64,000 nt of DNA from assembly GCA_036507075.1 (NCBI GenBank), contig DASXQR010000152.1:91189-155188 (forward strand), given 5' to 3'. Position 1 is the stretch's first letter. The number at the start of each line of letters is the position of its first letter. Made by a program: the position numbers and the translations under genes. The notes below the pieces were generated by a model, which saw nothing but the letters and a program-made list of their open reading frames with translations, was not told where the DNA came from and did not search any database. Positions 11,676 through 63,966 of the stretch are shown here, in pieces. The DNA is from Acidobacteriota bacterium (lineage in GTDB: Bacteria; Acidobacteriota; UBA6911; JACQSX01).

Positions 11676-11749
11676 GGCGGCGTAGCTCAGTTGGTCAGAG
11701 CATGCGGCTCATATCCGCAGTGTCCGGGGTTCGAGTCCCTGCGCCGCCA
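11676..11749 (+). tRNA. tRNA-Met(CAT), elongator type, CCA not encoded
   Basis: GGCGGCG/CGCCGCC acceptor stem, TGCGG-CTCATAT-CCGCA anticodon arm, GGTTCGAGTCC T arm. Confidence 0.93.
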
Positions 11750-19816: not shown

Positions 19817-19902
19817 GCCGAAGTGGCGGAACTGGCAGACGCACCGGACTCAAAATCCGGCGAGGTTTACCCCTCGTGGGGGTTCGACTCCCCCCTTCGG
19901 CA
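19817..19902 (+). tRNA. tRNA-Leu(CAA), CCA not encoded
   Basis: GCCGAAG/CTTCGGC acceptor stem, CCGGA-CTCAAAA-TCCGG anticodon arm, long variable arm. Confidence 0.95.
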
Positions 19903-51509: not shown

Positions 51510-53066
51510 ATGAAGCTGTCGCAGATATCCTGGGTTTCCGGCGCGCTGATCTTTTGCGCGCTGTGGATGTTGATGGCAATGCAGCCGGGCGCCCCGGCCG
51601 CCGCCATCCTGAACTCGAACATGTGCGTTCAGTCGGGCTGTCACACCACCAATGCGCTAAACGCCAGGCCCGAGCTGCTCACTGTCACCGGCTTCCCTCT
51701 CGCCTATACTCCCGGAACCAGTCATGACATCACCGTGACGGTCGGCAATAATCCCAATCCTGTGTCCACGGGACCGCTGGCAGGTTTTGCCGCCTACGTG
51801 AATCGCGACGGGGGGATCAGCAGCGCTTCGATTGGAACACTGGTTCAAACCGATGCAGGCACGCGACTGTTAAGCGCGAATGCATCACCGACGACTGTAA
51901 TACGCTATGTCACCCACAGCTCCCCGCGCGCGGGGACGCCTTCGGCAACTTTCCGGTTTCGCTGGACGGCGCCAGCAACCGCCGACACAAATGCGGTGCT
52001 GGTCGTGGGATCCAATTCTGCGAACGGGAACGGGCAGAACACCGGAGACTTCATCAGCAAGAAAACATTCACTGCCACGCCGGCAGCGGTGAACTGCACA
52101 TTCACCTTGTCGGCCGCCGGTCAATCATTTGCGTCCGGCGCCGCCACGGGCAGCGCAGGCGTGACCGCCTCTGATGCAAGCTGCGCGTGGACCGCCTCCA
52201 GCAATGCCGCTTTCATCACCGTCACTTCCGGCGCCGGCGGAACGGGCAACGGAACTGTGAACTTCTCGGTGGCGGCAAATACGACGGCTTCGGTGCGGAC
52301 CGGAACGCTCACTGTCGCGGGACAGACCTTTACAGTGACACAGGCGGGAAATCTTCCGGAAAATGAGAAGGTCGATTTCGCCCAGTTCGGCGACGGCAAC
52401 GGCCTGACTTCAACGTTTATCATCATCAACCGTTCCATCACACAGTCGGTCAGCGGCACCATAAAACTGAATGACAGCAGCGGCAATCCCATATCACTTC
52501 AGGTAAACACGAAAATGGCGGCCGGCGCCCAATTCGAGCCGTTCGACATCAGCACGGTCCTGGTGAACGGCAGCTTCCCCTTCATTATTCCCCCGCTGGG
52601 CGTCGGCTTCTACGCCACCGACGGAAAGTCGACCACCACACAGGTGGGATCGGCCCGGTTGAGCTCGACGCTTCCTGTGGCGGCGACCATTCTGTTCGCC
52701 GCCAGCTTTGGAACAACGGGAGTGGGCGCGGTCACGCCGCTGACGCACTTTTCCGTGCCCATCGAGATGGACATTCCCAACGGGGTCCTGACCGGCGTTG
52801 CTATCGCCAATCCGACTGAAGCTTCCGTCACGGTGACGCTGCAGTTGCGCGATACCCATGGAGCTCCGGTCGCCGGCGGCAGCAAAACCGAAACGCTGCC
52901 CGCAAACGGGCAGATCGCCAGGTTCCCCAATGAGCTGTTTCCGACCTTGAATCTCAGCCAGTTCCGGGGGACTCTGGAAGTAACGGCCCCGGTCGGCCAG
53001 GACGGAATGGCAGTGCGTGTCAGTCCCGGCCAGTTTTCGACATTGCCGGTGGCGGCGATTAATTGA
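51510..53066 (+). CDS. Surface protein: Reeler/choice-of-anchor-V-like domain (CX4CH), BACON, shared C-terminal domain
   Basis: CVQSGCH, YTPG, FRWTAP, SANGNG...[11 protein letters not shown]...[12 protein letters not shown]...[16 protein letters not shown]...QFSTLPV. Confidence 0.8.
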
Positions 53067-53373: not shown

Positions 53374-54915
53374 ATGAAGCTTCTTAAATTCTGTACTATT
53401 TTAGCCGCACTCGCTTTTGTGGCCATTTGCATATTATTGGCGCATTCGGACGGCGCGCCCTCTGAGGCAATCACCGCTTCAAATATGTGCATCCAATCAG
53501 GCTGTCACACGGGCACGCTCAATGGAACCGCCGGCCTTTTAACCGTAAGCGGATTTCCTTCTTCGTATACGCCGGGAACTGCTTACAACATGACGGTCAC
53601 AGTCAAGAAAAACCCAACGGTGAGCGCCGCGGCGGCCCGCGCCGGGTTTGCCGCTTTTGTTAACAAAGATGGCACGGGCAATTCTCCCTCGATCGGCACC
53701 CTTGCTTTGACCGATACCGGAACCAAGCTTGATGTGGCAACGACGATAAACGGCTTGATTCGGTACGTCACTCATAACAGCACACTCAGGACGTCGGGAA
53801 CCGGCGACATAAACTTTACATTCCGATGGACCGCTCCTTCCACTACCTCCGGCAATGTGGTGCTGGTGGTGGGTTCAAACTCGGCAAACGGCAACGGCAT
53901 GGAAACCGGAGACTTCATCAGCAAATCCACTTTCACCGCCACACCCGCCGCCGTGAACTGCACGTTTACCATCGCACCCACGACGCAGGCACTCCCGGCA
54001 GCCGGCGGAGATGGCAGTATTGCAGTGACCGCTTCAGATTCCAGTTGCACCTGGACCGCTTCCAGCAATGCGTCGTTCATCACCATCAGCTCGGGCGCCA
54101 CCGGCACCGGCAACGGAACGGTAAATTTCTCGGTGGCGGCAAATACCACCGACTCTGTGCGAACCGGCACCCTGACGGTAGCCGGCCAGACGTTCACGGT
54201 TACACAGGCGGCCCCCGCACCCGAGAATGAGAAAGTCGAATTCTCGCAATTCGGAGACGGCGGCGGGCTGACTTCAACCTTCGAGATCATCAACCGTTCC
54301 AGCACCCAGACCGTCAGCGGCACGGTCAGGCTTTTTGACAGCGGCGGAAATCCGATCACTGTAAACATCAACACCAAGGCGGCGCCCGGCGATTCGCTCA
54401 ATACGGCGGTGGTCAACGGCAGCTTCACGTTCAGTATTCCGCCGCTGGGTGTCGGCTTTTATTCCACGGACGGAAAATCGTCCAGCGTGCAGGTGGGTTC
54501 GGCCCAGTTGAGCTCCACGCTTCCGGTGGCAGCGACCATCCTGTTTGCCAGCAGCGCCGGAACGACCGGTGTCGGCGCCGTGACGCCGCTGCAGCACTTT
54601 TCCGTTCCGATCGAGATGGACATCCCCAAGGGAATTCTCACGGGCGTGGCGATAGCCAACCCGACCGGATCTCCAGTGACCGTTACGCTGCAGTTGCGTG
54701 ATACAAACGGAAACCCGGTGAGCGGAGGCAGTACCACGATCACGCTGGCGGCCAACGGACAGGTTGCACGGTTTCCGAATGAAATGTTCCTGTTGTTGAA
54801 CCTGAATCAATTCAAGGGTACGCTGGAGGTTACTGCGCCCGTCGGCCAGGACGGCATGGCCGTACGCGTCAGCCCGGGCCAGTTCTCGACGCTGCCGGTG
54901 GCGGCGATTAACTAA
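53374..54915 (+). CDS. Tandem paralog of the 51510 surface protein
   Basis: AHSDGAP, CIQSGCH, same architecture; C-terminal domain nearly identical. Confidence 0.8.
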
Positions 54916-57253: not shown

Positions 57254-57275
57254 TTGATGCAATAATGTGACTGTC

Positions 57276-58160
57276 ATGTTCGCCGGATCGAACCTGAAAA
57301 GTCGCACTGCCCGGCTCGCCGTTACTGTCGCCGCATTGCTGGCGGTTGCGAAGCTGGCCATCGGGATCTGGATGAATTCGGTGACTGTAATGGCCACGGC
57401 CGCCGATTCGCTCCTTGACATGTTTGCTTCCGTCATCAATTTCCTGTCGATCCGCAAGGCACAGACACCTCCCGACCGTGAACACCCGTTCGGTCACGGA
57501 AAAGCGGAGAGCCTGGCGGGGCTGTTTCAGTTCCTTGCGATCTTATTCACTTCACTTGTGCTCGGCTGGCAGGCTTATCGAAAGCTTCTTGCAGAGGGAC
57601 CGACTTTATACCTTCCGGCGGGTATTGCTGTTCTGGCAGCGTCGAGTGTCGCCAGCGGATACGTTGCCTATCGGCTGAGGCGTGTCGGAAAAGACACAGA
57701 GTCGCTGGCACTGATCGCCGACAGCATTCACTATCGCATGGACGTATTCACCAACGTGGGTGCGATGGCAGGACTGCTGATCATCATGTGGCGCCAATGG
57801 CACTGGGTCGACGCGGCCATATCGCTGGTGATCTCCGTTGCCATTCTGGCGGCGGCAGTGCGAGTCGGCCTGCGCTCAGTGGATGAATTGATGGACCGCA
57901 ATCTGCCGGACGAAACACGCGTGCAGATTGATCAGATCCTGGCAGAATTCAAACCCGACATCATCAGCTATCACAATCTGCGCACGCGCAAATCGGGTTC
58001 GCACAAGTTCATCGACCTGCACATCGTCATTCCCGCAGATTATCCGTTTGGAAAAGCACATCGGCTGACAGAAGAAGTGATGGCGCGGATCCAAAGGCGT
58101 ATCCCGAATTCCGACGTGATGATCCACACCGACCCGGCCGGCGAGGCGGACTTGTTCTAG
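57276..58160 (+). CDS. fieF: Cation diffusion facilitator (FieF-like)
   Basis: DSLLD, PPDREHPFGHGKAESL, ADSIHYRMD, HNLRTR, IHTDP. Confidence 0.9.
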   Translation: MFAGSNLKSRTARLAVTVAALLAVAKLAIGIWMNSVTVMATAADSLLDMFASVINFLSIRKAQTPPDREHPFGHGKAESLAGLFQFLAILFTSLVLGWQAYRKLLAEGPTLYLPAGIAVLAASSVASGYVAYRLRRVGKDTESLALIADSIHYRMDVFTNVGAMAGLLIIMWRQWHWVDAAISLVISVAILAAAVRVGLRSVDELMDRNLPDETRVQIDQILAEFKPDIISYHNLRTRKSGSHKFIDLHIVIPADYPFGKAHRLTEEVMARIQRRIPNSDVMIHTDPAGEADLF

Positions 58161-59056: not shown

Positions 59057-59144
59057 GTCCTACTCTCCGCTTCCTCTGAAAGTGCATCGCATTGCGACAA
59101 CTTCAGTTTAGCAGCACAGCCAATCAAATGCGGATCTACCCAAG

Positions 59145-59242
59145 TGCGGATTTCGGAATGCGGAATGCGGAATATAAGCCAGATCGAGTTCCGCAAGCCG
59201 AGATCACAATCAAATCCAATTCCGCATTCCGAAATCCGCATT
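59145..59242. repeat. Inverted GCGGAAT/ATTCCGC heptamer arrays
   Basis: Same left arm as 16436. Confidence 0.82.
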
Positions 59243-59248
59243 TGAGCA

Positions 59249-59920
59249 TCAGTGAATCCACTTCTCCAATTCTGCCTGGAGGAGTTTGGGAGTGTATTTT
59301 GTACCATGATTCAGGCCGAGATTTTGAAGCCAAACGGTCGGCTCGGGAGCAGCATTCCCCCAAAACACCTGGGGCTTGTAAACCACGAAAATGTCCCAGG
59401 CAAGGGTATTGGCAGGAAAGTTCAACTGGGTGGTGTACAGCTTCAGACCGTAGCTCCACAGATCCCAGAAATGAGCTGATCTGGCGTCGGGCAGATAACC
59501 GGAGGCAATCTCGGCGGCGCGCCGGTTGTCGCTGGTGCGGATTGGACCCCACAGAACAAATACTTTGATTTTTGCTTTCGGATTCTGTTCCAAAAACTCG
59601 CGAACTTCGGAGGCCCCCCGAAGACAATGCCCTCAGGTGGGGGAAAAAACCAGCACCAGGCGCACTCGATCTGCCGAAGCATTGAAGGCCTTTATGAATT
59701 CCGCGCCGCCAAACGATATCGTAGTAACCGGCTGCATCTCGCCGGGCGGGGGAAGCGTAAAGGGAGCCGGCTGTGTTGCGGGTTGCTGCGAACCCTGGGG
59801 CGGAGGCACCTTATCGTTCTGTCCCGCAGCAGTCTGTGGATGGCGCTGCGCCACTGTTGCCGGAGAATGAAGAATTCCCAGGAGTGCGGTCATGAAAATC
59901 AGACAAAATACGCGTCTCAT
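59249..59920 (-). CDS. Exported thioredoxin-like selenoprotein (SPT-U-GHC), 223 aa with UGA read-through at 59633-59635
   Basis: Two track ORFs share a frame and are joined by one TGA that gives UxxC; a hairpin follows. Confidence 0.78.
59605..59623 (-). promoter_or_regulatory. Candidate bacterial SECIS hairpin CTTCGGGG-GGC-CTCCGAAG
   Basis: Starts 9 nt after the UGA; G-starting loop about 17 nt downstream. Confidence 0.6.
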
Positions 59921-60070
59921 AGAATCGAAATCGTCCTGTTGTTTGGGGGATAACTTACCGGACACGGTAAAAGTCTCCGGTTGCAATCTTATCCACTGAT
60001 CTCTCAAGATACCCAATTGGGCGTAAAGTTGGCAACTTTGTTGTTTCCAGAGGGGTGTTCCGAGGTCTGA

Positions 60071-60130
60071 ATCACCACAAAGGCACAAAGGCACGAAGAG
60101 TCTTTGTGCCTTTGTGTCTTTGTGGTGATT
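60071..60130. repeat. CACAAAG-type inverted repeat
   Basis: Arms read directly. Confidence 0.8.
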
Positions 60131-60179
60131 CTTTAACAGAGTCTTTCCTGCGCTTGCTCGGAACAGGAGTTACAGAGTT

Positions 60180-60822: not shown

Positions 60823-61653
60823 TTACCGCGCCCCCGCCTTGCGGATATAGATGTTCCCGTTGAAGTTCTTAAACTGGATCTCGGGACCGCCGCCGTTAAT
60901 GGTGCCGGAGATTCCCTTATCGATTCGCACGCGATACCTCCCGCCGCGGGGGCGCGCATCTTCGACTACGGGTTTTGGACTTTCCTGTAATTTGATCTCA
61001 AAGTCACTGTAGATCTCACCCATGTCGGTGCGCATGTTTACACTGGCGCGAATATCGGCGGGAAGCGTCACGTCGATGTTTCCGTTGAGCGAGCTGAACG
61101 ACATGGCCTTGTTCGGTTCCACTTTGAGAAGATTGACTTTTACGGTGCCGTTGAGAGCATGCACCACCGCCGAGCCTGAGACGCCGGCCAGCGTCACAGA
61201 ACCGTTGGTGTTATTTGCTTCGATTTCGCCTTCCACCTGCTCCACGTTGATGTCGCCGTCATTCAGACATTTCAATTTCAGGGAAGTGCGCAAAGGCACC
61301 TGGATGGTCAGATCGACGGTGTGATTCATGAAGCCCGTCCCAACGCTCATCACGTTGTTTTCTTCTTCGACCGTCAGCCCGGAGGAACTGTTAACGATCC
61401 TCCGCATCCCACCGCTGCGCGCCTCCGACCTGGAATCCTCCCGGCCGCGCGGGTGCGCCTCAACCACCACTTCCTTTCCGTTATAGCCTTTGATCTTCAA
61501 TCCTCCGCTCATCAGGCTTACTTTGAGCGTGCCGGAACGCGACGGATCCGAGAATGCCACAGACACCTTGTCTGCACTCTGCGCGCGAGCCGCCTCCGAC
61601 AACGGCAGGCTCAACATTATTAAAGCGACGGTGATTCGACAAAAGAATTTCAT
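60823..61653 (-). CDS. Exported DUF4097 beta-strand repeat protein
   Basis: Repeated NG-x-I/V units; ends GGGPEIQFKNFNGNIYIRK. Confidence 0.85.
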   Translation of the reverse strand: MKFFCRITVALIMLSLPLSEAARAQSADKVSVAFSDPSRSGTLKVSLMSGGLKIKGYNGKEVVVEAHPRGREDSRSEARSGGMRRIVNSSSGLTVEEENNVMSVGTGFMNHTVDLTIQVPLRTSLKLKCLNDGDINVEQVEGEIEANNTNGSVTLAGVSGSAVVHALNGTVKVNLLKVEPNKAMSFSSLNGNIDVTLPADIRASVNMRTDMGEIYSDFEIKLQESPKPVVEDARPRGGRYRVRIDKGISGTINGGGPEIQFKNFNGNIYIRKAGAR

Positions 61654-61667
61654 TCTGTTTCTTCCTT

Positions 61668-62522
61668 TCATTTCTCGCGTTGCAATATGCGGATGGTTCC
61701 GTTGAACCCCTCCAGCTTGATTTCCGGCCCGCCGTTGCCGATGCGGATACTTGAGAAACCATTGTTCCTGTAAACAAACCTTCCGTTGCGCCGCTCTCCG
61801 GCCGGCGTGGCATTTGGCAGATAAGTCACCGGGAAATCTGAGTAGATGGCGCCGTTGAATGTCTTTACCTTCACGTCGGCCGATAGTCCTGGACGGAAGG
61901 AAATCTCGACATTCCCGTTCAGCGACCCGAAATAGCAGGATGAACGGGGATTCTCGCGGAACAGCGTCTTCATCCGGCCATTGAGCGCGTAAGCCCTGCC
62001 GGATCCAGAAACTTCGTTCATTTCAACGCTGCCGTTGATATTATCCACGTCAAAATCACCGCTCACGTTTTCAACTTTGATGTCACCGCCATTGACCGTG
62101 TAAAGCCGCAATCCTGCGTCCTGTGGTACTTTCAGCTCGAAATCGTAGTTCACTTCATAACCGTAGTAGCGCGGACCGCGCGAATGCAGGGAGCCATCCT
62201 GGCATCGGAAAGGGCCATCGACATAAAGACGGAGCACGTTATCCTTTTCTGAAATGTCCAGCTTCACTTCCTTTCGTGCGACTTCGATCTTTTCCTTCGA
62301 GACGGCGCGGATGGTTTGGTTGACCAGCAAATGGACGCTGCGCCCGTTATAGCCGGCGACGTGAATCGATCCGAACACATTGTCCACGTTTACTTCTTTT
62401 GCGGCGGAAGGATTGGAGAATTCAAGCGTCCTCTGAATTGTCTCTTTCTGCTCCACGTCCAGGCTCACTCCCCATGAGTTAAGAGCGAGCATAAACAGGA
62501 TCCCGCTGATCACGCCGGCCAT
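61668..62522 (-). CDS. Exported DUF4097 beta-strand repeat protein
   Basis: Repeated NG-x-V/I units; ends GGPEIKLEGFNGTIRI. Confidence 0.85.
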   Translation of the reverse strand: MAGVISGILFMLALNSWGVSLDVEQKETIQRTLEFSNPSAAKEVNVDNVFGSIHVAGYNGRSVHLLVNQTIRAVSKEKIEVARKEVKLDISEKDNVLRLYVDGPFRCQDGSLHSRGPRYYGYEVNYDFELKVPQDAGLRLYTVNGGDIKVENVSGDFDVDNINGSVEMNEVSGSGRAYALNGRMKTLFRENPRSSCYFGSLNGNVEISFRPGLSADVKVKTFNGAIYSDFPVTYLPNATPAGERRNGRFVYRNNGFSSIRIGNGGPEIKLEGFNGTIRILQREK

Positions 62523-62532
62523 AAAATCCTCC

Positions 62533-63345
62533 TCAACTTAGTTTTTGGATACCCCAGGCGGCGCGCTCGCGCACCACCTTGTTCACTTCACGATCCCGGC
62601 TCAGTCTGCGCAGCACATCCACAGCCTGCTTTTCGCGGGTTTCCACCATCGCATCTATCAGAGCGATCTGGACCAGCGGCGAATCCTGCCGCGGCAGGGT
62701 TTCAATCATGCCCTCGCGCACCGACCGCTGGCTCATGAATTGCCGCAACGCATCCACGGCGGCCAGCCTGACATCCACGTTGGAATCGTGATCGAGCGTG
62801 CGCATCAGCGCCGACAGCACTTCGCCGGTCGGCCGCTCCATGCGGTAACTCCAGTTGACGCCTTTGAGCCTTTCGCTGGCCGACTGCTGCTGCAGCAGCG
62901 AAAGGGTGACCAGTTGCTGCATCTGGTGCACTTCGGCCTGCAATTGCCTCAAATCAGTATTCTGAGGAGTGGCAGTGAACTGCCGCCCGGTCAAAAGTCC
63001 GATCACCAGAAAGCAGAGCGCCAGTGCAAACTGAAGAGCAGGCTGTCGCGGCCACCAGCGCAGCAACATGTCTTTGAACGTCTCTTTCCAGCGCGCGGAA
63101 GCTCCGCTGTGACTCATGCCGGCGGCGTAGGCCTGCAGCATCGCCTCAAACCTTGTGCGCATTATCGGGCTGGGCAGTTCGTCGGGAATCTGTCCCAACC
63201 GGGTCCAGATGGCGCTCAGACTCTCCATTTCCGCCCTGCAGACAGAACAGCCGGAAACGTGGGCCTCCAGCGCTCCCCTGGCGGAGGAATCGAGTTCCTC
63301 TACCCAGTAATCCGCGAATTGCTCTCGTGCTCGCTCGCATTTCAT
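62533..63345 (-). CDS. Zinc-binding anti-sigma factor (zf-HC2) with TM and HEAT repeats
   Basis: HVSGCSVC; TM; DSNVDVRLAAVDAL. Confidence 0.88.
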   Translation of the reverse strand: MKCERAREQFADYWVEELDSSARGALEAHVSGCSVCRAEMESLSAIWTRLGQIPDELPSPIMRTRFEAMLQAYAAGMSHSGASARWKETFKDMLLRWWPRQPALQFALALCFLVIGLLTGRQFTATPQNTDLRQLQAEVHQMQQLVTLSLLQQQSASERLKGVNWSYRMERPTGEVLSALMRTLDHDSNVDVRLAAVDALRQFMSQRSVREGMIETLPRQDSPLVQIALIDAMVETREKQAVDVLRRLSRDREVNKVVRERAAWGIQKLS

Positions 63346-63899
63346 GACGCTTTTTCACCTGCCATTTCAAAGTAGAGTTCGCGCAGGTCGCGCATCGCGC
63401 GAAATACCCGCGTTTTTACCGTGCCGATGTCGCACCCCAGGATTTCGGCGATCTGGCGGTATTTCAGGTCCTGGAAACGGCTCAGCACCAGGACTTCTCT
63501 CTTTTCTTCGGGGAGCTTGAGCAGCGCATCTCGCAGCAGCGCAGCCTGCTGATCCGCTTCCAGTCTCCGGCCGTGCAAGGGGCCTTGATGCAGTGTCTCT
63601 TCCATCTCATCTTCCAGCGTTACTTCACGCCTTCTCTTTCGGAAGTAGTCGATCTGCGCGTTGCGCGCAATGCCGAACATCCAGGTGCTGAACTGGCTGT
63701 TTCCGCGATAGGTGCGCCGGTACTTGAGGATCCGAAAGAATACGTCCTGAACCAGATCCTCGCTGATCTCGCGACTGGCCGTGAGGCGCAGATAAAAATT
63801 GAACAGCCGGCCGTGGTACCGCTCAAAGAGCACTCCCAGCCGGGACAGATCGCCATTCTGCACATCCAGCATCAATTGATGATCTGTCGGTCCGTTCAC
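63342..63899 (-). CDS. ECF RNA polymerase sigma factor
   Basis: SEDLVQDVF, FSTWMFGIARN, LKYRQIAEILGCDIGTVKTRVFRA; GTG start with GGAG RBS. Confidence 0.92.
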   Translation of the reverse strand: MNGPTDHQLMLDVQNGDLSRLGVLFERYHGRLFNFYLRLTASREISEDLVQDVFFRILKYRRTYRGNSQFSTWMFGIARNAQIDYFRKRRREVTLEDEMEETLHQGPLHGRRLEADQQAALLRDALLKLPEEKREVLVLSRFQDLKYRQIAEILGCDIGTVKTRVFRAMRDLRELYFEMAGEKAS

Positions 63900-63938
63900 G
63901 CCTCTCCCGTCCCCGGCTCCCTGCTCTTTCCTCTTAGG

Positions 63939-63966
63939 TAAACTCCGATCCCCCAAAAAGGTTACA
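63939..63966 (-). promoter_or_regulatory. Possible ECF autoregulatory promoter TGTAAC-N16-AGTTTA
   Basis: AAC-type -35 element at the expected place upstream of the ECF gene. Confidence 0.45.

Follow-up and report, generated by a model that had tools for sequence, protein, structure and literature searches.

The window, by which we mean the whole stretch of 64,000 nucleotides of acidobacterial DNA analysed here, carries on its minus strand a gene interrupted by a single in-frame TGA (Table 1). Translated from 59920 to 59249 with TGA read as U, it yields 223 residues followed by a terminal TGA. The internal TGA at codon 96 lies within RVRLVLVFSPT-U-GHCLRGASEVREFLEQ, and the frame remains open for 127 codons behind it, as had been claimed in a preliminary description made from the sequence alone; the segments IKVFVLW, HFWD and AWDIFVVY quoted there are all present in the translation. 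The strand was not given in that description. The plus-strand reading of 59249-59920 is nearly open as well (one TGA) and was rejected as an antisense shadow. A longer open reading frame with an upstream GTG start at 60094 was also rejected because the homologs and the deposited 95-aa fragment, which shares the ATG of the whole gene, start at the signal peptide. Calling open reading frames by standard rules gives two pieces, and the split by gene callers that had been predicted is found in the public databases, where the halves of 95 and 114 aa are each deposited as exact separate proteins. The TGA at codon 96 is no assembly slip, since contigs from two soil runs match the window exactly: the contig of run X2, which may itself be the source of this DNA, is identical at each of the 951 bases compared, and 59559-59709 is covered without any difference by a contig of run X4 that is 151 bases long.

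Table 1. Features of the predicted selenoprotein gene and its product in the window
Feature	Position	Strand	Description
Whole gene of the predicted selenoprotein	59249..59920	minus	223 codons and TGA stop, one in-frame TGA at codon 96
Predicted signal peptide, residues 1-24	59849..59920	minus	From hydropathy; cleavage site inferred by eye
Pro/Gln-rich linker, residues 25-64	59729..59848	minus	19 of 40 residues P or Q (48%)
Predicted thioredoxin-fold domain with TlpA/Prx-type helix-strand insertion, residues ~65-223	59252..59728	minus	From structure model and fold search
Predicted U-G-H-C active site after conserved S-P-T	59624..59635	minus	U96 = TGA 59635-59633, C99 = 59626-59624
Putative bSECIS hairpin	59605..59623	minus	8-bp stem, GGC loop (59615-59613), 17 nt from UGA
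W175-D176	59393..59398	minus	D176 aligned with cis-proline of TlpA-type proteins; directly before model strand 177-181

The N-terminus is signal-peptide-like by hydropathy, in agreement with the preliminary description: MRR is followed by a hydrophobic core (11-residue Kyte-Doolittle values up to 2.8), then by T-V-A and, beyond the predicted cleavage site, Q. The predicted structure has a helix at residues 3-16, and a hydrophobic N-terminal stretch (at least 2.0) occurs at 67 of the 73 related loci. The Pro/Gln linker, also described earlier, does lie ahead of the thioredoxin-like part; it is modelled with low pLDDT and no secondary structure, coincides with gaps in the homologs and is longer in the window protein than in most relatives.

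The gene is solitary and has palindromic repeats on both sides. A divergent TPR-like gene lies upstream of it; the genes downstream, of GlsB type and BON, are small. The repeats are two different imperfect palindromes (59141-59244 and 60069-60131, with 26-nt and 31-nt arms) whose arms recur many times across the genome in the manner of REP elements (102 hits on 56 contigs and 29 hits on 23 contigs, respectively). Contigs of runs X1 and X2 which join 59242 to about 60070 share only 20-23 matching bases at this junction and probably represent other copies of the repeats. Clustering the neighbours of 65 related loci and the window revealed lineage-specific synteny only, and no neighbour was shared with the window. 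A gene for a CDF cation-efflux transporter (57267-58160) lies about 1.1 kb off on the other strand and is not conserved among close relatives; a CDF gene is likewise found upstream at one distant locus (L140). Elsewhere in the window, 51510-53066 and 53374-54915 encode tandem paralogs of an exported protein (69% identical over 520 aa), both with a C-x3-GCH motif near the N-terminus and the latter with a BACON domain. A minus-strand run at 60823-63956 comprises an ECF sigma factor gene, a zf-HC2/HEAT anti-sigma-like gene and two DUF4097-like genes. tRNA genes lie at 11676-11749 and 19817-19902, and no other Rfam family reached the gathering threshold in the window.

The codons of the homologs indicate how the TGA is likely to be read. 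TGA 96 occupies the first Cys position of the motif S-P-T-[U/C]-x-x-C, and this column is Cys in all 35 close protein homologs and in 169 of the 175 rows of a wider alignment, the remainder including three Ser, one Asp and one Trp. In the DNA of 73 distinct close loci the codon is either TGA (57 loci, window included) or TGC/TGT (16 loci) and never another. The homologs thus carry Cys or TGA here and not the Trp or Arg that would have spoken against the preliminary description. TGA is also present at three loci outside the parsed 73 (L054, L114 and L116), two of which (L114 and L116) are frameshifted relatives. Distant loci gave the same picture, TGA being at the first Cys position in 35 of 35 TGA-bearing loci, which were chosen for showing TGA; the resulting 35:5 proportion of Sec to Cys among 40 distant loci reflects this selection of regions and is no frequency estimate. 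In a sample of 401 genomes of the phylum, which takes in the window's own genome and the unpublished G024, the family is present in 69 genomes, and 71 of the 99 listed matches have one in-frame TGA, as counted by hand. The relatives that bear names are Acidobacteriota MAGs. Parsimony on a midpoint-rooted tree of 112 loci reconstructs Sec for the root and requires 9 changes, and the resolving Cys (position C99) is kept in 239 of 244 sequences. Judged from these codons, the UxxC family is mostly Sec-using. Two loci (L033:1500-2650 of G336, and L102) hold two paralogs in tandem, one with Sec and the other with Cys, which provides a natural pair for testing the advantage of Sec.

An 8-bp stem with a G-led loop had been noticed 3' of the UGA, and we found it at 59623-59605 with a GGC loop that begins 17 nt past the UGA. 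The hairpin (-9.3 kcal/mol) agrees with all four consensus constraints given in section 5 of PMC13188914. Taken singly, the hairpin in the window sequence is not significant: its z-score is -1.59, 13 of 200 shuffles were equally stable, and an equally stable hairpin followed 34 of 1200 sampled TGA stops of long open reading frames in the same genome. Its significance comes from covariation in the relatives and not from the stability of the single hairpin. In 52 distinct TGA genes, 95.2% of 416 stem cells are paired, two-sided changes occur at 6 of the 8 pairs and the first loop G is invariant. None of 500 shuffles reached such pairing, although this test is inflated by the relatedness of the 52 genes, and slid controls were 27-67% paired. 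The same positions in 12 Cys genes, which encode nearly the same peptide, are 47.9% paired without any two-sided change, and this contrast is unaffected by relatedness.

The Sec machinery, which according to the preliminary description was to be sought in the genome, is present in full. The window's genome (G000, completeness 95.7%) encodes SelA (E 5.5e-128 with Pfam, 1e-158 with TIGR00474), SelB (E 2.7e-113), a tRNA-Sec (selC) with a TCA anticodon, and SelD, whose gene has an in-frame TGA of its own (L020, contig C59). selA was found in 300 of the 401 phylum genomes, and selB exceeded the cut-off in 65 of 68 genomes bearing the family. The search for selB gave nothing over the cut-off in two TGA-bearing genomes, G120 (84% complete) and G204, and selA was not found at E<=1e-60 in two others, G230 and G318; these cases may be assembly gaps. 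Members of genus g8 (G088, G148, G170, G200 and G260) have only the Cys form of the family, yet they have kept selA; their selB matches cover only positions 1-346 of the 581 of the model, which suggests a divergent SECIS-binding end. Further genes with an in-frame TGA in the window's genome include a deiodinase-like gene with S-C-T-U-N-L-F (L127, C17), two Prx/redoxin-like genes (L181 on C218 and L189 on C88) and a third redoxin match (L187, C187).

The homolog codons, the hairpin covariation, the Sec machinery and the co-occurrence of selB with the family together support the predicted insertion of Sec in place of the first Cys of CxxC, and the in-frame UGA is almost certainly read as selenocysteine. 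The two deposited pieces are thus very likely one exported thioredoxin-fold protein with selenocysteine in its active site. That the TGA is instead a true stop (of a pseudogene or between two short genes), a sequencing error or a Trp codon is highly improbable. The insignificance of the hairpin taken alone and the few frameshifted relatives could be quoted in its favour, but TGA recurs at the same codon over dozens of genera and interchanges only with Cys, the covarying hairpin is confined to the TGA genes, and the contigs of two runs agree exactly. TGA is not a Trp codon here because it also ends the window gene and many others in the genome. From what the comparison of homologous genes implies, this reading is effectively refuted.

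The thioredoxin-like features claimed earlier were borne out by a confident model and a fold search. The domain was modelled with pLDDT 98 and pTM 0.93 as a thioredoxin core (beta-alpha-beta-alpha-beta-beta-alpha) in which helix 1 begins with the dithiol and which contains the helix-strand insertion known from TlpA/ResA/Prx/GPx proteins. The fold search returned ResA 2f9s (Z 12.8, rmsd 2.8, 126 aligned), M. tuberculosis DsbE 1lu4 (Z 12.8, rmsd 2.7, 123 aligned) and mouse Dio3 (Z 9.8), and extracytoplasmic CxxC oxidoreductases (ResA, DsbE, FetE, SdbA) make up most of the best-ranking structures. Many thioredoxin-fold families score alike here, at 5-22% identity, and the matches do not indicate a function.

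No Pfam or NCBIfam 20.0 model covers the domain. An NCBIfam scan of overlapping sets of 36, 63 and 88 proteins gave hits over or near the cut-off only to fused partner domains, PF08534 and PF00578 had no match near the cut-off (best Redoxin E 0.029 among 88 members), and the locus is not among the 13 Redoxin matches in its genome. Neither PDB sequences nor the ESM Atlas yielded a family with a name; the closest Atlas clusters are 'hypothetical' (0.96-0.97), and named ones reach at most 0.88. The PLSDB plasmids contained no match. The family nevertheless numbers 1,635 clusters or representatives at 50% identity (E<=0.001). Table 1 of PMC13188914 (119 families, some of them defined through CDD profiles only) has no recognisable entry for it, a motif search of the supplementary GOS sequences (PMC2398784) gave no member, and our literature search found no paper on it; members may be listed in BSepDB under the generic label 'Trx-like'. 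The absence of the family from the catalogues is probably due to gene callers cutting the gene in two. Several members have additional domains. In a clade of ~310-aa proteins (P0058, P0067, P0071-P0074 and about 40 similar ones) the domain follows an unnamed beta-rich N-terminal domain, and both DNA-checked members (L175 and L179) have Cys. In L141, L148 and P0061 it is fused to aspartyl-protease-like domains, with TGA at the active site in two of them, and the distant members P0095 and P0153 are fused to DUF4097/LiaG.

The signature residues are F79, R87, S-P-T-[U/C]-x-x-C, W124, D131, D145-x-R147, H-[FY]-W-D, A-W-D, W187 and P-x-P. None of 244 sequences has Pro at positions 175-177, and Asp aligns with the usual cis-proline, a register supported by a profile alignment of low probability (8-39%) together with the order of strands, not by coordinates; the TlpA control alignment held 7 sequences. 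Profile-profile comparison (hhalign) gave 61-81% to bacterial deiodinase-like proteins (E 1e-5 to 8e-5; one row of that set is from the unpublished G024) versus 39% to TlpA. Between themselves the deiodinase-like and TlpA profiles reach 99.6%, a much closer match than the family has to either of them, and the family is for this reason a branch separate from both. Passages of PMC2757866 describe the cis-proline as more conserved than CxxC in thioredoxins and CMPs and as likely to help in binding substrate polypeptides, and add, citing Su et al. (2007), that it may prevent metal binding at CxxC.

In a tree of 244 sequences (141 columns, FastTree), the window protein belongs to a 78-member clade (support 0.95) with no metal-linked member, and metal-related genes are near none of 43 loci of its group. 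By contrast, 15 of 40 distant loci have MerR, MerT, MerC, HMA, DF, CsoR or zf-CopZ genes within about 4 kb, also after removal of self-hits; 25 of the 40 have no metal-type neighbour, and the queries, drawn from distant loci and fused family members, favour hits there. The background of 0/601 tiles in the window's genome is an uninformative null because that genome gave almost no hits to these queries. In sister clades, the domain is fused to HMA, MerT, DF (NF049942) or GDCCVxC domains, and its gene is found in the operons csoR-merT-gene-merC-merA-like (L165), merR-DF-merT-gene (L161 and L166) and merT-(gene+HMA) (L170). The window's genome has no MerT match and one weak MerR-like tblastn hit (E 0.002). 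The metal link bears on the family, not on the window's copy. The active-site dipeptide of the window's clade contains His in 57 of 78 members and is G-H or P-H in 52, and position 199 is Gln in 68 of 78, whereas it is His in 121 of the 166 sequences outside the clade.

We tentatively suggest that the protein is an exported thioredoxin-fold selenoprotein acting as an envelope selenol-thiol reductase, and the tentativeness applies to the whole chain of steps. Its observed starting point consists of a TGA where the first Cys would be encoded, the hairpin behind it, and selA, selB, selC and selD in the genome. SelB would then, almost certainly, bind the hairpin and Sec would be inserted to give a 223-residue precursor. 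Export is likely, and the precursor would in all likelihood be cleaved near A24 and released into the periplasm. There, with rather good probability given the fold, the selenolate of Sec96 would attack an oxidised target and Cys99 would resolve the adduct, leaving a selenenylsulfide. We would guess that the targets are oxidised or metal-loaded cysteine pairs rather than nascent folding polypeptides, because Asp takes the cis-proline position; the CxxC of HMA, MerT or DF partners, as in the sister clades, may be candidates. Re-reduction of the U-G-H-C site might be performed by the DsbD/CcdA-redoxin fusion of the genome, whose only DsbD_TM gene (C83) shares a 411-codon frame with a redoxin match. 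Several observations count against such a reductase. No functional or metal-gene neighbour is conserved in the window's clade. The G-H/P-H dipeptide resembles those of oxidising or isomerising PDI and DsbA sites and not those of reductases. The loss of the cis-proline speaks against ordinary disulfide exchange: in thioredoxins and CMPs this residue is conserved even more strongly than CxxC itself (PMC2757866).

The dipeptide leads to the reading as a disulfide oxidase or isomerase for envelope protein folding (DsbA/PDI-like), which we regard as rather improbable. CGHC/CPHC-type dipeptides dominate the window's clade, the predicted location is exported, and the best, though weak, sequence hits among solved structures are PDIs (E 0.0015-0.005, whole sequence, motif-driven). 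Such enzymes, however, use the cis-proline as part of their polypeptide-binding site (PMC2757866, in the passages cited above), which this family lacks; moreover, the model has no DsbA helical insertion, DsbB, the oxidant searched for, gave no match in the window's genome, and none of the Dsb/PDI models of Pfam and NCBIfam came near the cut-off. A small-molecule selenoenzyme on the same fold, either a peroxidase or a deiodinase-like dehalogenase, is improbable to a still greater degree. The S-x-T-U and the A-W before strand 3 that are common with bacterial deiodinase-like proteins, the better hhalign probability to these than to TlpA, GPx structures among the Foldseek hits and weak SelP_N hits of 2 of 88 members (E 0.055) point that way, but deiodinase-like proteins and TlpA resemble each other far more than the family, the E-A-H motif and the deiodinase insertion are absent, mouse Dio3 scores three Z units under ResA, there is no GPx or Prx family match, and the genome already has a separate PF00837 selenoprotein on C17.

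The same selenoprotein might also be a carrier or sink of soft metals (Hg2+, Cu+, Ag+), with Sec96 and Cys99, and Asp176 nearby, binding the ion as MerP does for MerT, and with the stand-alone copy of the window as a general periplasmic scavenger; we consider this unlikely, though it is the foremost competitor of the reductase reading. The slot after merT is normally held by merP, and in sister clades it is taken by the gene described here (L165, L161 and L166; as gene+HMA in L170). The metal-type neighbours of the 15 distant loci, the MerT and HMA fusions and His199 outside the window's clade fit a carrier as well, and so does the absence of the cis-proline, the possible bar to metal binding at CxxC mentioned in PMC2757866 (citing Su et al. 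2007). Against it stand the Gln199 and the 0/43 metal neighbourhoods of the window's clade, the mer-poor genome, the 25 distant loci without a metal neighbour and the choice of queries; fusion to HMA, itself metal-binding, would fit a reductase partner equally well. It is doubtful that the family lost the cis-proline in turning into a handler of soft metals based on selenium, one which replaced MerP behind merT in several clades, and similarly doubtful that the window's clade serves as a general envelope metal/thiol scavenger in mer-less soil Acidobacteriota.

UxxC thioredoxin-fold selenoproteins are a well-known kind, and for this reason the recoding as such will not surprise a specialist. 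Of interest is a large family (69 of 401 Acidobacteriota genomes) that lacks a Pfam or NCBIfam model, and apparently a hidden selenoprotein family with an unusual active-site loop in which Asp would stand for the cis-proline. Its sister clades occur in mer-like operons, and MerT-family selenoproteins are already catalogued, while the preprint of Haft and Gwadz reported none in characterised mercury resistance. With this family it can be tested directly whether bacteria use Sec in handling mercury or copper; the window's copy is a control there and not the prime case because it belongs to a stand-alone branch. If the metal-handler reading were true, selenocysteine would be tied to operons of the mercury-resistance type through replacement of MerP behind merT.

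Among known systems, TlpA, ResA and DsbE (CcmG) (PDB 2f9s, 1lu4, 3gl3, 8t4c) share with the window protein the thioredoxin fold and its helix-strand insertion (121-130 residues aligned at Z 12-13 and rmsd 2.4-3.5), a dithiol motif where helix 1 begins, and the export, which is predicted for the window protein. They differ from it in sequence (5-13% identity among the top hits, profile-profile probability 39%), in having W-A-x-W-C for the S-P-T-U of the window family and x-I-P (A-I-P) for its A-W-D at the cis-proline loop before strand 3, and in lacking its extra W-x4-P-x-P-x2-W segment. The catalogued UxxC forms of Redoxin (PF08534), Prx-like (PF00578) and cd02966 proteins in Table 1 of PMC13188914 likewise have Sec at the first Cys.

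The deiodinase-like proteins (PF00837) have in common with the window family S-x-T-U, A-W before strand 3, the thioredoxin fold and the phylum, where they occur in 17 of 151 genomes. The window family has no PF00837 hit, lacks the E-A-H motif and the deiodinase insertion, has D where the deiodinase-like proteins have P after A-W, and possesses a resolving Cys, which is missing from all 15 Dio-like sequences examined (they read U-P-P-F or a variant of it). The Acidobacteriota deiodinase-like genes (L121-L135 and L138) themselves show an in-frame TGA in 16 of 19 PF00837 matches in the 151 genomes. SelP is secreted and metal-binding. SelP_N (PF04592) and the GOS 'Prx-like 2' proteins (PMC2398784) also combine UxxC with a thioredoxin-like fold, and two of the Prx-like 2 sequences given there apparently have Asp just before strand 3, as judged by eye. 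PF04592 hit 2 of 88 family members weakly (E 0.055) and had no match over the cut-off in 201 Acidobacteriota genomes.

MerP is comparable in that the sister-clade genes take the slot after merT or are fused to MerT or HMA, and in the exported two-ligand Cys/Sec site (export being predicted); the window family has a thioredoxin fold, in contrast to the HMA fold of MerP. Catalogued MerT-family selenoproteins are NF033556 MerTP, NF045683 MerT_CopZ_Se and NF041115, and the window's clade is not mer-linked. SaoT (NF040730), NF053656 TUGYCR, NF047660, NF041383 and NF045500 are UxxC thioredoxin-like selenoproteins that gene callers also split. None of these NCBIfam models matched at the cut-off, the best being NF053656 with one member (E 0.038) and not the window locus. 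SaoT is a protein of about 85 aa that is proposed to touch heavy-metal species (bioRxiv 10.1101/2022.07.06.499078).
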